From the UHGV virus genome UHGV-0168042: 64,000 nucleotides of DNA; one strand, given 5' to 3'. Each line of letters begins with the position of its first letter. The stretch's first letter is position 1. Shown here piece by piece: positions 8,069-63,910 of the stretch. This stretch comes from a virus. The position numbers and the translations under genes are program-made. The notes under the pieces are model-generated. The model had not been told where the DNA came from. It did not search any database and was given only the letters and a program-made list of their open reading frames with translations.

Positions 8069-9249
8069 ATGTACTCCATGAACATTTTTTCAGCTTGTGC
8101 TGGTGGTGTTCCAGCCATGACAAGCGCATCAATGAACGCCTGCTTCTTCAGTGCGAACTGATCGGCAAGGCGTTGCTGAAGTTCCTTATTTTTCTGTTTC
8201 TCACGTTGCAAGGCCGCTTCTTTTGCAGCCGCCCGTTTTTTCTGTGCGTCTGACAACTTTCTGGCCCTGGTCAATTGGTCACGTAGCTTGTCGATATTGC
8301 CGTTGTCCTTTGCCAGTTTTGTACTTAAAGCTGCCTGGCGCTTCTGATAGAGCCTCCATTCGCGTTTGGCGGCTTCAACGTTTGTTTTACTGCTTCGATT
8401 GCGATTAAACTCCTTCTCGTCTTCTTTTGAGAAGTGTTTGGTTGTACGGCGGCGATCGTCACCAAATGCAATTTGCGTTGCAGCCTTTTGTAGCGCACGA
8501 GCAATACTCATTTGCCAACTGGCGGACTGTAACCGCGTCATTGAGTGGATCACGTGTTTACAGGCGACGCCTTGCAGCTTCGGGTTGCGAACTTTTGGAT
8601 AGGCGTATTCTTTTGGCGGGGCCAGGGCAAAGTTACCCGCAGTAGCGATGTAACGATACCAGTATTGATGACGACCACAGTCACAATCGAAAGACACTCG
8701 CCCGGCGCACAGTGATTTAGTGATTTTGAGAGCTGATTTATCGTCTTCTGCGATGTCATCGACCATCTGATCCCATTCTTCAAAGCGTATCCGGACGATA
8801 TGGTGCTGGTGGACGGATATATCCGATGCTTCTACGCGGATATTAATCACGTTGTGGCGAAGAGATACGGGGGTAGCTCTTTTGATACCAGATCCGTCAT
8901 CCACGGCGTTATTTGCACGCTTAATATCGATTGCCTGGCTGGATGCCACCAGCTGGGCGTATGTGATGCCAGCCGTCTTGCTGTCATATTTTTCGCGTGT
9001 TTTACTCCGTAGCTTTTCGAAACCTTTCAGGTCGTCTCGCGTGAAGAACGTGCCGCCTTTTTTCTTCCCTAACTTGAGAATATCTTCGGCGGATTTGTTC
9101 CTCAGTCCACCTGGCGTCAGCGTCCGGTGAGCTTGTCGGCGCTTACGGGTTTGTTCTTTCCTGATAATCTCGAATATACGCGTGAAGTCCTTAGAGGACA
9201 GACCGTCAGTGATATAGCGCCCGTCCTGGTTTTTCAGGAAATCAGGCAT
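8059..9249 (-). CDS. Hypothetical protein with SWIM-type zinc-finger-like motif and basic coiled-coil C-terminus
   Basis: 396 aa; FDCDCGRHQYW...CKHVIH fits a CxC-Xn-CxH motif; C-terminal 120 aa K/R/E/Q-rich. Confidence 0.45.
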   Translation of the reverse strand: MPDFLKNQDGRYITDGLSSKDFTRIFEIIRKEQTRKRRQAHRTLTPGGLRNKSAEDILKLGKKKGGTFFTRDDLKGFEKLRSKTREKYDSKTAGITYAQLVASSQAIDIKRANNAVDDGSGIKRATPVSLRHNVINIRVEASDISVHQHHIVRIRFEEWDQMVDDIAEDDKSALKITKSLCAGRVSFDCDCGRHQYWYRYIATAGNFALAPPKEYAYPKVRNPKLQGVACKHVIHSMTRLQSASWQMSIARALQKAATQIAFGDDRRRTTKHFSKEDEKEFNRNRSSKTNVEAAKREWRLYQKRQAALSTKLAKDNGNIDKLRDQLTRARKLSDAQKKRAAAKEAALQREKQKNKELQQRLADQFALKKQAFIDALVMAGTPPAQAEKMFMEYIKN

Positions 9250-9571
9250 TTTCTATCTCCGGTTCCGCGCTTGCGTAATCACGGATCTTGTTCCTCAGCC
9301 ATGCCACATCAGGAAGAGTTAACGTGGTCCCTGCGGGCATTTCTTCCATTTCTGACTCATGGCCCACCAGCACCCGGAATACCCAGCGCAAATCTGCATT
9401 GCCATACGCCCTGTAGGCTGCAAGGTCTGAACGATATACTTCATCAATCTTTATCGTGTACTGGAAATTATCAGAGTGATACTCCGATACCCGCTTAATC
9501 ATTTCCTGGTGAAACAGCGCACGAAAAATATCGTCTTCAATGTACCTATCGTCGAGTCTGCTATAGCCCAT
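9242..9571 (-). CDS. Hypothetical protein
   Basis: 109-aa ORF overlapping the start of the SWIM-motif gene by 8 nt. Confidence 0.4.
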   Translation of the reverse strand: MGYSRLDDRYIEDDIFRALFHQEMIKRVSEYHSDNFQYTIKIDEVYRSDLAAYRAYGNADLRWVFRVLVGHESEMEEMPAGTTLTLPDVAWLRNKIRDYASAEPEIENA

Positions 9572-9764
9572 AACAAAGCCTCTCAGTCATAACCTGGTGG
9601 AAACTGTATGCAGGGTGTGAAATGCGAGAAACAGACAGGCCACCAGTTCAGGGGGATGTGGTTCATAAATCCCCTCACTGGTGACAAGTGACTTTCATTA
9701 ATCTTTATGCGGGGGCCAGCTTCATTTGCTGGCATTAGATTAAAAATTAAACGGAGTGAATGAC

Positions 9765-9899
9765 ATGGATGTTATCTTCGAATTATTAATGCTAATTGAT
9801 CTGTTTATGAACGCTTCATTGACCACGCAAATACTGGCGTCAATATTTTTGTTACTCTTCTACCTGGTATTGAGGGAGTTAACAAAGCTACTAATGTGA
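9765..9899 (+). CDS. Small hydrophobic peptide (44 aa), possible membrane peptide/toxin
   Basis: ATG preceded by GGAG 8 nt upstream; MDVIFELLMLIDLFMNASLTTQILASIFLLLFYLVLRELTKLLM; below ORF-track length cut-off; ends 1 nt before the convergent gene's stop. Confidence 0.25.
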   Translation: MDVIFELLMLIDLFMNASLTTQILASIFLLLFYLVLRELTKLLM

Positions 9900-10553
9900 T
9901 CAAAGTATCACGGTATCTTCATCAACTTCTTTCCCAGCCAGTGACTTTGGCTGGGAGGTGCCTGCTTTAACTTTTTCATGCCCAATAATGGACAGGAACG
10001 AAGCGAGTATGCCTGTTTTTTGCTCTTTCTCGACTGTACCGATCATCTGCTCTACGTAATCCGCACTGGCAACGTTGTGGTATACGGTCGCGTAGCAACA
10101 CAGGACCATCAGAATATGTTCCGGCCTGATATCCTGCCAGTTCACCCGGTAGACTTCTTCTCCGTTACCGTTGTATTCGGTGTCAACGATGGAGTCAGGG
10201 ATTTCGAAAGCACCTTTGTTATTTTGCGGCAGGGATAATAGCTTCTGGAGTTTTAACTCTCTGTATCTTTCCATCCCGACGATGATTGCTGCTCTGCCAT
10301 CGGCATGACGGGTCTTGAGAGTCACCTGGCTTGCTCCGGTGCCAGCGGAGATCGTTGGCGTTATTTCGTCTACCAGTACCTTAAATTTGCTTTTCCGCAG
10401 GGCTGCTATAGCTGGAGGAATTTTTTGCTTTTGCTCCAATGCTGACGCGGGAAGGGGTTTTACTTCGTTAATAATGAGAGCACCGTCTTTCAGTATTGCA
10501 GTGAGCATTTGAGGCTTGCTGGTGGTCAGGCTGAATATTGCGATCTTTTCCAT
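9900..10553 (-). CDS. Hypothetical protein
   Basis: Track ORF 9900-10595; preferred start is internal Met (MEKIAIFSL) with GGAGGA RBS about 8 nt upstream, downstream of a terminator. Confidence 0.45.
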   Translation of the reverse strand: MEKIAIFSLTTSKPQMLTAILKDGALIINEVKPLPASALEQKQKIPPAIAALRKSKFKVLVDEITPTISAGTGASQVTLKTRHADGRAAIIVGMERYRELKLQKLLSLPQNNKGAFEIPDSIVDTEYNGNGEEVYRVNWQDIRPEHILMVLCCYATVYHNVASADYVEQMIGTVEKEQKTGILASFLSIIGHEKVKAGTSQPKSLAGKEVDEDTVIL

Positions 10554-10579
10554 TGTCCTTCCTCCACGGATGACGGATA

Positions 10580-10606
10580 CAAAAAAAGGCCGCACATGGC
10601 GGCCTG
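10580..10606 (-). terminator. Rho-independent terminator on minus strand, immediately upstream of the RBS of 9900-10553
   Basis: Minus strand reads GGCCGCCATGTGCGGCC then TTTTTTT; implies a short leader transcript or sRNA ending here. Confidence 0.45.
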
Positions 10607-10821
10607 CTTTGGCGTTATGACTCCCTACCGCGCTTCGGCTGAAAGTTAATCGTCAAAAGAACCTTCAACGGGAGCCGTTAGCGCGATGGATTATGTGCAG
10701 TTTGTGATTTCCAAAATAGTGTCAACCACTTTTTGTGGATTTTATTTTTTGACCGAAATTTGGCCTAAATCATGTTGATGTAGTTGATTGTTTTTGTAAC
10801 ATAAAACTTCATTTTGTTTAC

Positions 10822-11445
10822 ATGAAGGACGGTGTAGTGAAGTTAAGGGTTTTAGGGACCGCGCTCGCGGCTATGTTGGGATGCGTATCTGTTAATACAG
10901 CCAATGCAACTGCGTTACCTGCACAATTCAGGGCAGGGCAGCAGGTTATGAATAACGCTGGTGGGGATCATTCACAAGCGGCAATTATGGACTTTTGCAA
11001 GAGAGAGGGCATTCCATTACGGCCTGTTGGAACTCAGTTTATTGGTAAAACTGACTTTTGCGTTTTTGCATATACAGCATATCTGACGGACAAAGCTATA
11101 ACAAAAACAGGTTATTCAACCAAAGATACTCTTTCCAGATTAAGTCAGGGATGGCAGCAATTCGAAGTGTATCGCCAGCAAGGATTAGGTGAGTTATTAC
11201 AACCACTTTTTATGCTTGCGTTGGTGCCCGAGGGGCAGCAATTTTTGGTTAAAAAGGGAATGCTTCGCCAAAGTGATATTGCCGGGTTCGATAGCATGAT
11301 GGCTTATGAGCGCAAACTAACCGAGCAGCGAAATAAAAAACCATCTGCTTCATGTGTGCAAAGTAAAACAGCAGAATACAGTGCAGTAGCCGGGCCTTTA
11401 GCCAAACAAATGGCAGAGCAATGGTGTAAAAAATACGGGCAATAA
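10822..11445 (+). CDS. Secreted protein with N-terminal signal peptide (unknown function)
   Basis: 207 aa; MKDGVVKLRVLGTALAAMLGCVSVNTANA signal-like N-terminus; AT-rich promoter region upstream. Confidence 0.5.
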   Translation: MKDGVVKLRVLGTALAAMLGCVSVNTANATALPAQFRAGQQVMNNAGGDHSQAAIMDFCKREGIPLRPVGTQFIGKTDFCVFAYTAYLTDKAITKTGYSTKDTLSRLSQGWQQFEVYRQQGLGELLQPLFMLALVPEGQQFLVKKGMLRQSDIAGFDSMMAYERKLTEQRNKKPSASCVQSKTAEYSAVAGPLAKQMAEQWCKKYGQ

Positions 11446-13382: not shown

Positions 13383-13694
13383 ATTGGCAGCCTCCTTTTG
13401 CTAATTTAAGGAGCTACCGCGTGAGGTTCCAATCTCAATGGCGGTAGCACTGACTGGGTTGGAACTACCGGCGCAAAAGGGAACCGGCCTGCCTTTCGGC
13501 AGCCCAGCCAGCACTACCATTGATCTCTGAGCTAAACGCTACGTATGGCTGTGCGATGGCATGACACAAGAAAAGACGCTTTCGGCGTCTGTGTCGCCTT
13601 TTGCATTATCCGGGGTTCCAATCCCGGCACCCGTTTTTCTAAGGTGCCGTAGAAATATACCCCACGATAATGCCAGGGCGCAACAGTCAGTATT

Positions 13695-39190: not shown

Positions 39191-39266
39191 TGGTGGCCCC
39201 TACCGGACTTGAACCGGTGACCGTGCGATTATGAGTCGCCCGCTCTAACCACTGAGCTAAAGGGCC
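39191..39266 (-). tRNA. tRNA with CAU anticodon, most similar to tRNA-Ile2 (lysidine-modified, AUA-reading)
   Basis: GGCCCTTTAGCTCAGTGGTTAGAGCGGGCGACTCATAATCGCACGGTCACCGGTTCAAGTCCGGTAGGGGCCACCA; cloverleaf folds; anticodon stem-loop identical to E. coli ileX as recalled. Confidence 0.8.
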
Positions 39267-41103: not shown

Positions 41104-41179
41104 TGGTGCCGGTTAACGGACTCGAACCGCTGACATCCTGCTTACAAGGCAGGCGCTCTACCAACTGAGCTAAACCGGC
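41104..41179 (-). tRNA. tRNA-Thr (anticodon UGU)
   Basis: GCCGGTTTAGCTCAGTTGGTAGAGCGCCTGCCTTGTAAGCAGGATGTCAGCGGTTCGAGTCCGTTAACCGGCACCA; canonical stems. Confidence 0.8.
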
Positions 41180-41181
41180 AT

Positions 41182-41258
41182 TGGCGATGGTGGGTGGATT
41201 CGAACCACCGACCGACAGCTTAGAAGGCTGCTGCTCTATCCTACTGAGCTACACCATC
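41182..41258 (-). tRNA. tRNA-Arg (anticodon UCU, AGA/AGG-reading)
   Basis: GATGGTGTAGCTCAGTAGGATAGAGCAGCAGCCTTCTAAGCTGTCGGTCGGTGGTTCGAATCCACCCACCATCGCCA; 2 nt from tRNA-Thr. Confidence 0.8.
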
Positions 41259-52581: not shown

Positions 52582-52677
52582 TATGGAGAATGTTATTTTC
52601 AGGGGGACGATACTACCGTCAAAATCACATACTCCCCATAGTTTGCCTACTTATTAACCCATGACCGGGAGAAAAAT

Positions 52678-54323: not shown

Positions 54324-54653
54324 AGTTACGGCCTCACTAACAGGTTTAACAACCTGCTACCCGCTGTCAAACAGGTGGCAGGACGTGACAGGGTTGACAG
54401 ACTGGCGTTAGTGAAACCAGCAGGCCGAAGCCTCCCCATCACGCCCCACCATAATTCGGGCGTAACGCGGTTTACGGACACAAAAATACCGCAATATCGG
54501 AAATCTGCGGTTGTCCGCACTAACATTCAGGCTGTCAAACCTGGTCGCAGAATTTGCTACGACGGCATGAATATAAGCCTGAAAACATGGAAGATCAACT
54601 AAAAATTTCAGCAATGGATGACTTCAGTCGATGATGCAGATCATACATTCCGA

Positions 54654-58594: not shown

Positions 58595-58658
58595 GAATCA
58601 CCGCAAATTGTTTCCAGTTTTGCGGCAGCATAATCAGTATGTGATTTCAGCGGTTGGT

Positions 58659-60056: not shown

Positions 60057-60138
60057 CGATAGAGAAAGCTGTGAGTGTAAAAAGTGTGTGATTTATGTGA
60101 GAACAGATAAGTGAAAGGGGCATTTCAGCCCCTTTTGA

Positions 60139-63807: not shown

Positions 63808-63910
63808 ACCCCTCCAGAAATAACATCTAATGCGCCACTAACTTAGTCAGTTTGTTATTTCCTTACAGGACATCTTCTAGGATCGTATCCTTAGCATACA
63901 AGGGAGACAT

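Follow-up and report, generated by a model that had tools for sequence, protein, structure and literature searches.

The gene mat of a P1-family phage-plasmid is preceded by a structured RNA, conserved, previously undescribed and of a known general kind, whose family is absent from Rfam 15. The RNA is predicted to run from a putative late promoter to an intrinsic terminator directly before mat, and we lean towards the interpretation that it acts in cis as a late-leader attenuator whose read-through is set by a partner or by RNA polymerase itself, the ~104-nt RNA being a by-product or co-product. Its features in the window (the whole 64,000-nt stretch of DNA analysed here) are the following.

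10684-10581 (minus strand): predicted leader RNA, ~104 nt, from a covariance model and promoter geometry
10684-10612 (minus strand): three-way-junction domain, from minimum-free-energy (MFE) folds, RNAalifold and pair counts, as for both parts of the closing stem
10684-10679 with 10617-10612 (minus strand): closing stem, outer part
10676-10670 with 10625-10619 (minus strand): closing stem, inner part
10666-10660 with 10647-10641 (minus strand): hairpin P3, 7 bp, with a 12-nt loop at 10659-10648 (CUUUUGACGAUU) in which UUUUGAC is invariant
10639-10636 with 10630-10627 (minus strand): hairpin P4, loop AAGCG, with GCGCGG invariant
10611-10605 (minus strand): single-stranded linker CAAAGCA, 7-9 nt in all clades of the alignment
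10605-10581 (minus strand): intrinsic terminator, stem 10605-10599 with 10593-10587, loop CAUGU, U7 at 10587-10581
10565-10557 (minus strand): Shine-Dalgarno sequence of mat, GGAGGAAGG
9900-10553 (minus strand): mat, 217 aa, maturation control protein, counterpart of D6 orf78

Genomic context of mat

The window is a D6-like (P1-family) phage-plasmid. The region has 97% identity to Escherichia phage D6, itself a plasmid prophage of the P1 family, and is found in 119 PLSDB plasmids from Escherichia, Salmonella and Shigella. D6 orf78 is annotated as similar to P1 mat (maturation control), and Mat of the window shares only ~33% identity with P1 Mat. The protein belongs to no NCBIfam family, and its predicted fold resembles a large-terminase nuclease domain. 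The gene at 10822-11445 on the plus strand diverges from mat, making 10554-10821 a divergent intergenic region. In relatives, mat heads the mat-26-25 baseplate/tail operon, and in most of them it overlaps gene 26, which is followed by gene 25 and more tail genes; in D6-type phages, an insertion of ~330 bp lies between mat and gene 26. A Raoultella lineage carries a HicAB toxin-antitoxin pair inserted at the same junction (L068, 3230-3903).

Elsewhere in the window, three tRNA genes are present as in D6, at 39194-39266, 41107-41179 and 41185-41258, all on the minus strand. Two C4 antisense RNA genes, an isrK-like RNA and a C4 a1b1 target site occupy 13437-13524, 13569-13647, 54371-54456 and 54524-54576, also on the minus strand; their presence means that the window element has two immI-like regions, each beside an icd/antirepressor pair in D6.

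A probable D6-type late promoter upstream of the leader

Four sets of promoter-like sequence elements are of note.

10725-10720 (minus strand): TTGACA hexamer, preceded by an A-tract and conserved in most clades
10709-10690 (minus strand): D6-type late-promoter motif AAATCACA-N7-YAnnnT, with box AATCACA at 10709-10703, 7 nt, and CATAAT at 10695-10690
52623-52642 (plus strand), 58627-58646, 60074-60093, 63840-63859 and 10690-10709 (minus strand): late-promoter motifs of the window
9686-9704 (plus strand): perfect P1-type late promoter, AAGTGACTT-TCAT-TAATCT, in the D6-specific insertion between mat and gene 26

A preliminary description of this DNA had pointed to a perfect TTGACA on the minus strand about 170 bp upstream of the terminator. 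The hexamer is there, but it lies ~133 nt from the last U and 167 nt from the ATG, and it is probably not a working -35 element because no TAnnnT hexamer occurs 16-19 nt downstream and a consensus promoter scan found no sigma-70 promoter at the mat leader. The sole -10-like hexamer, CATAAT at 10695-10690, is 24 nt from TTGACA. Between clades, the spacing from TTGAC to the -10-like hexamer varies (18 nt in L032, otherwise 24 or 26 nt); a box of the form (A/T)(A/T)T(C/A/T)ACA keeps a constant 7 nt from the -10-like hexamer in all of them. At P1 mat the late promoter also overlaps a TTGACA (Pmat/LPmat), and by analogy the hexamer seen here may be the counterpart of the -35 of the P1 sigma-70 promoter Pmat. 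Its position coincides with a mosaic boundary of the module. Inside the diverging gene, at 11200-11214 on the minus strand, CATAAAAAGTGGTTG matches the sequence just 5' of TTGACA (CACAAAAAGTGGTTG) with one mismatch, probably by chance.

Judged by its sequence, a D6-type late promoter is more likely to serve mat than one based on TTGACA. Exact matches to AATCACA-N7-YANNNT number four in the window against 0.15 expected, and the motifs of the window precede a lysozyme-like gene, the portal gene, a ddrB-like gene, the lydA holin gene (with one mismatch) and the mat leader. The complete D6 genome has seven exact matches, all intergenic and just 5' of late genes (lysozyme-like orf16, portal, ddrB, R, pmgB, the major capsid gene and mat). 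The mat promoter thus resembles the P1-family late class in having a box at a fixed short distance from the -10, no -35 at 17 bp and recurrence before late operons. The D6 box is similar to the P1 Lpa box read in reverse complement (AAGTCACTT against AAATCACAN), with a spacing of 6 nt versus 4 in P1; a canonical P1 late box at the mat promoter has three mismatches and is unconvincing, so that the D6-type box was preferred. Inspection by eye gave no match to sigma-54, sigma-32, sigma-E or sigma-28 motifs that was consistent across clades, and no site for the P1 C1 operator consensus was found within the window.

The distance from -10 to ATG is 137 nt at mat compared with 30-50 nt at the six other D6 late promoters; mat is therefore the sole D6 late unit with such a leader. 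The short late leader of the portal gene (58598-58626, minus strand) starts with a hairpin (GCCGCAAA...TTTGCGG) directly before the start codon and has no U-run.

An intrinsic terminator directly before mat

The strong minus-strand terminator with seven U that had been described upstream of 9900-10553 was confirmed at the sequence level. Its hairpin on the minus strand, AGGCCGC-CAUGU-GCGGCCU, has seven pairs, six of them G-C, a 5-nt loop and a free energy of -12.5 kcal/mol. A strict scan of both strands of the 64-kb window (6 bp or more of perfect stem, 5 or more of them G-C pairs, loop of 3-8 nt, T6 or more) returned it as the sole match, with 0.02 expected from shuffled sequence. The spacing originally given needs correction: 27 nt is the distance from the U-run to the ATG (10553) and not to the ribosome-binding site, the Shine-Dalgarno sequence starting 15 nt past the last U. 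Every clade has 14-27 nt between U-run and ATG apart from one lineage, in which an insertion brings the distance to 70 nt. Because the gap is this short in nearly all relatives, there is no space for a promoter between terminator and Shine-Dalgarno sequence, and expression of mat requires read-through. In a Raoultella lineage (L068, 2434-2500), a 45-nt insertion between terminator and mat contains the late-box-like sequence TTTCACA-N7-CATAGC, which, if functional, could bypass the terminator.

The terminator hairpin is kept across all clades, and the U-run is U5-U8 in most. In a Pantoea/Enterobacter clade (L074/L076/L078), the U-run is degenerate (UUUCGCCUUUU) and the rest of the RNA is kept, so that termination may be weak there while the RNA stays conserved. 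This broken U-run in an RNA that is still conserved suggests that the conserved function is perhaps other than termination as such, and it weakens models that take efficient termination or an Hfq-type tail for the conserved function.

An alternative interpretation is that the hairpin is a plain insulator or terminator behind a passive leader, blocking transcription from upstream genes such as ref or, if bidirectional, from the antisense late promoter at 9686-9704. That promoter points antisense through orf77 and mat toward the leader. Upstream genes are indeed co-directional in many relatives, the hairpin is palindromic with an A-run on its other side, and Tn916 has a terminator that serves as an insulator. 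We nonetheless consider this improbable because the upstream gene diverges in the window, leaving nothing to insulate mat from, because the U-tail of the hairpin on the plus strand (UGCUUUGG) is poor, and because mat would still depend on read-through.

The leader folds as a covarying three-way junction

From promoter geometry only, we infer a 5' end at about G10684, where the closing stem begins, 6 nt past the -10 hexamer; the 3' end would lie within the U-run. A short terminated RNA, as had been suggested for this region, is still viable, but its length from CATAAT to the U-run would be ~104 nt and not ~170 nt.

Single-sequence MFE folds from five clades agree on a long closing stem and a three-way junction, in which GCGCUAAcGGCUCCC pairs with GGGAGUCaUAAcGC over 13 pairs, and RNAalifold recovered the same helices from a MAFFT alignment, with 8 covarying pairs. 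A covariance model built from six sequences found a single copy in the window (10579-10687, 136.8 bits). In the model-fitted alignment, 90.7% of cells were paired compared with 33-49% when partners were slid, and 14 pairs had changed on both sides compared with 1-4 after sliding; none of 500 shuffles reached the observed values. The structure-naive MAFFT alignment gave the same picture (81.5% paired versus 36-50%; 11 double-change pairs versus 2-6). For the window sequence, the junction fold has -39.1 kcal/mol and the MFE, -42.3 kcal/mol, belongs to a different fold (structure A) in which the 5' strand pairs with GCGCGG. Structure A leaves the terminator uninvolved; it was rejected as it has no covariation support and its paired fraction was reached by 82 of 500 shuffles.

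Substitutions in the leader keep pairing and not sequence, with G-C replaced by A-U and C-G by U-A. This pattern bears on whether the conserved entity might be an element that acts as DNA, for example as a protein-binding site or an origin-like sequence, and not as an RNA. A non-coding stretch so highly conserved in sequence would fit such an element, but preservation of base pairing would not, and the element is strand-oriented, with a promoter upstream and a U-run downstream, and lacks internal repeats or other copies; we regard a DNA-level role as extremely improbable. Searches with 15-mers of the leader or promoter returned only chance-level matches elsewhere in the window.

The terminator hairpin was present in the MFE fold of all 15 sequences, and no conserved alternative pairing that could act as an antiterminator against it was found in the folds of these 15 sequences or by a shuffle test. 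Since no alternative pairing competes with the terminator, the logic of a classical attenuator or riboswitch is absent. The leader has in common with such elements a structured 5' leader and an intrinsic terminator directly before the coding region, and differs from them in having no competing pairing, no conserved leader peptide and no Rfam family. The only candidate for a leader peptide in the window is a TTG-started frame of 17 codons; other clades have no start codon and carry indels that are not multiples of three. Of the two modes of action that the preliminary description had offered, a small RNA or control by antitermination, both stay viable, since read-through is needed and the RNA is conserved and covarying, although not in the form of a classical attenuator.

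Three further structures were set aside: a pseudoknot between the P3 loop and the linker, which by eye on the alignment is not conserved; pairing of the P3 loop with mat codons 2-4, which is broken in L031; and a hammerhead-like core, which was absent both by eye and in Rfam.

Conservation and strict linkage to mat

Alignment of the regions upstream of mat in 32 IMG/VR contigs and one GTDB genome showed that the stretch from TTGACA through the U-run is nearly invariant and that the DNA 5' of TTGACA is mosaic; in some plasmids homology begins exactly at TTGACA. Searches through divergent Mat proteins, from 76% down to ~48-49% identity, added 18 loci from Raoultella, Salmonella, Enterobacter, Pantoea and metagenomes. 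In the window, D6, the 32 IMG/VR loci and these 18 loci, the element lies directly before mat, on the same strand, once per locus. Covariance model scores at D6-type mat loci were 35-137 bits, with one match per locus; P1 mat gave none, and the 64-kb window yielded no second copy.

Other searches started from the RNA and not from Mat. An exact 23-nt core of the leader was confined in IMG/VR to the 32 contigs known through Mat, and a degenerate pattern returned 33 further IMG/VR contigs, 23 of which were confirmed by the covariance model to hold the full RNA. Mat was found 14-19 nt downstream on the same strand at every pattern-found locus with downstream sequence (21 of 21). A metagenome scan yielded seven true members among the 80 loci returned, all belonging to known clades, a result that bears on clade membership only.

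The leader was more similar to that of the window than the mat coding sequence was in nine of nine comparisons (nucleotide identities of 96 versus 80%, 84 versus 72%, 84 versus 71%, 80 versus 64%, and 68-71 versus 60-61%), and DNA further upstream was at the random level of 44-54% except in the closest relative, L026 (78%). Among D6-type elements, 26% of leader sites are variable compared with 27% at mat codon positions 1 and 2 and 86% at position 3; the corresponding values in the closest group are 1.8%, 3.0% and 29%. A passive leader conserved merely for mRNA stability or through recent common descent, the other half of the insulator reading and as improbable as the first, would have to account for these values, and descent alone leaves unexplained why the leader is better conserved than the coding sequence, has 14 compensatory pairs and keeps invariant loops.

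The same conservation might instead reflect a gene for a trans-acting small RNA, whose main product would be the ~104-nt RNA, acting on host or phage targets or sequestering a protein, with read-through into mat being incidental or secondary, as in the dual-function RNAs IsrK and StxS. The layout of strong promoter, 5'-terminal stem, structured body, terminator hairpin and U7 is in keeping with this, as are loop motifs that are invariant while the stems covary, and purifying selection on the leader as strong as at nonsynonymous sites; a terminator before the first gene would also make the RNA the most abundant product of its promoter, and StxS is a precedent for a terminated late-promoter leader that is a regulatory small RNA (PMC7547250). 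We consider this rather unlikely because strict linkage to mat despite mosaic upstream DNA favours a cis role, and because the U-tail of Hfq-type small RNAs (a 3' hairpin with at least 6 U, present in the window and most clades) has been lost in the L074 clade, which keeps the rest of the RNA. Furthermore, a duplex-energy search for trans targets in the 64-kb phage window gave no outlier or outstanding complementary target; the best non-self z-score was about -4.6 among 12,800 windows, at a site on the non-coding strand.

Comparison with known leaders and phage RNAs

The leader has no match in Rfam 15 at gathering thresholds. In a permissive search the best hit was isrK, at 14.7 bits against a gathering threshold of 50 (E = 0.64) and covering the terminator only, and pairwise alignment detected no similarity between the leader and the isrK-like RNA of the window itself. 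IsrK of Gifsy-1 and the C4/CI antisense RNAs of P1, P7 and P4 are, like the mat leader, phage RNAs that end at an in-leader terminator, and they control downstream genes; the mat leader differs from IsrK in that the Rfam match is sub-threshold and limited to the terminator, and in the lack of similarity on pairwise alignment.

The closest parallel in layout is lambda PR'-6S RNA-tR' and StxS (PMC7547250). There, as at mat, the first late gene stands behind a late promoter, a short leader and a strong terminator, in that order; as proposed for mat, a short RNA is released and the late genes need read-through. The lambda promoter is constitutive, of the sigma-70 type and has a Q-binding site, whereas the mat promoter is, by its motif, of the activator-type (Lpa-like) late class. 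Further differences from lambda are that D6 has no annotated Q-like protein, that the mat leader is a conserved three-way junction and that it is found on one of seven late promoters. Among the 125 annotated features of D6, none is named as an antiterminator, including those of the Q family.

Within the phage family itself, the ref gene of P1 (AF234172; L002, 548-575) carries a hairpin, GGCGGCC-ATTA-GGCCGCC, and a U8 run that ends 6 nt before the ATG. The two leaders share the phage family, the ref-mat neighbourhood and a GC-rich hairpin with a U-run before the start codon. According to its title, the 1988 paper by Windle, Laufer and Hays, cited in PMC10695390, concerns attenuator-antiterminator control of ref, and antitermination in P1 is described as having strong indications and no direct evidence (PMC10695390). 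The ref leader nevertheless has no detectable homology to the mat leader (covariance model 12.8 bits, E = 0.86), folds as one simple hairpin plus terminator without a junction, and belongs to a different gene with a C1-controlled sigma-70 promoter.

HK022 put and Tn916 canT also resemble the mat leader, in that a structured nascent RNA of ~70 nt follows the promoter of a mobile element upstream of terminators, and this raises the possibility of a self-contained RNA antiterminator, in which the junction RNA would bind its own polymerase and make it resist the terminator 7 nt downstream as well as later ones. The ~73-nt structured RNA at the 5' end of the transcript, directly after the promoter, is placed like putL (PMC9378689), the linker to the terminator is short and fixed at 7-9 nt, mobile elements are known to have RNA antiterminators that act in cis (PMC11658703), and the suspected antitermination in P1 is unexplained. 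However, put RNA is V-shaped, with two stem-loops side by side and no closing helix, and binds the beta' zinc-binding domain (PMC9378689), through which it suppresses termination without other factors. The mat leader, in contrast, is a closed three-way junction with a 13-pair closing stem. A constitutive antiterminator immediately before a strong terminator would have no obvious purpose, and no further minus-strand terminators lie downstream in 9000-9900; we therefore give this interpretation a low probability.

A model for late-leader attenuation

We infer transcription start, termination, regulated read-through and a partner for the leader, and the cis-acting attenuator that we favour would combine them as follows. 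The late promoter AAATCACA-N7-CATAAT would start transcription at ~10684, in dependence on Lpa if the analogy with P1 late promoters holds. The first ~73 nt would fold as the three-way-junction RNA; past the 7-nt linker, the terminator would stop most polymerases at 10587-10581 and free the ~104-nt RNA. Only polymerases that read through would reach mat and the baseplate/tail genes that in relatives are translationally coupled to it, 26 and 25, and the terminator would in this way dose or gate the operon. Because ~330 bp separates mat from gene 26 in D6-type phages, dosing there may concern mat only. The junction domain might be the module by which a partner, whether a protein of phage or host or RNA polymerase itself, recognizes the leader and sets the level of read-through; we read it in this way because its stems covary, its loops (UUUUGAC and GCGCGG) are invariant, its distance to the terminator is fixed and short, and it does not overlap the terminator. 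It may also give the released RNA a function of its own.

A more speculative variant makes the RNA a stable late RNA that works with Mat, as a cofactor, a decoy or an element for Mat autocontrol; a related idea is that the P1 family has in this leader its first antitermination device based on RNA. The variant draws on the predicted terminase-nuclease-like fold of Mat and on the constant co-inheritance of RNA and mat, and we think it very unlikely.

Implications for P1-family phage-plasmids

Phage-plasmids of the P1 family commonly carry resistance genes in Enterobacterales, and their late regulation has been held to rest on the activator Lpa alone; antitermination in P1 has been suspected since 1988 and never pinned down. 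The mat leader offers a defined, conserved and tractable site where termination versus read-through must decide late-operon expression. As a structured RNA family that Rfam 15 lacks, it shows covariation and invariant loops that point to a specific partner, and its analysis yielded a D6-type late-promoter consensus as a further result. The predicted fold suggests that Mat is a terminase-nuclease-like protein, which, if true, would explain why its dose is held down. Whether by gating or by dosing, the leader RNA probably affects late-gene expression.
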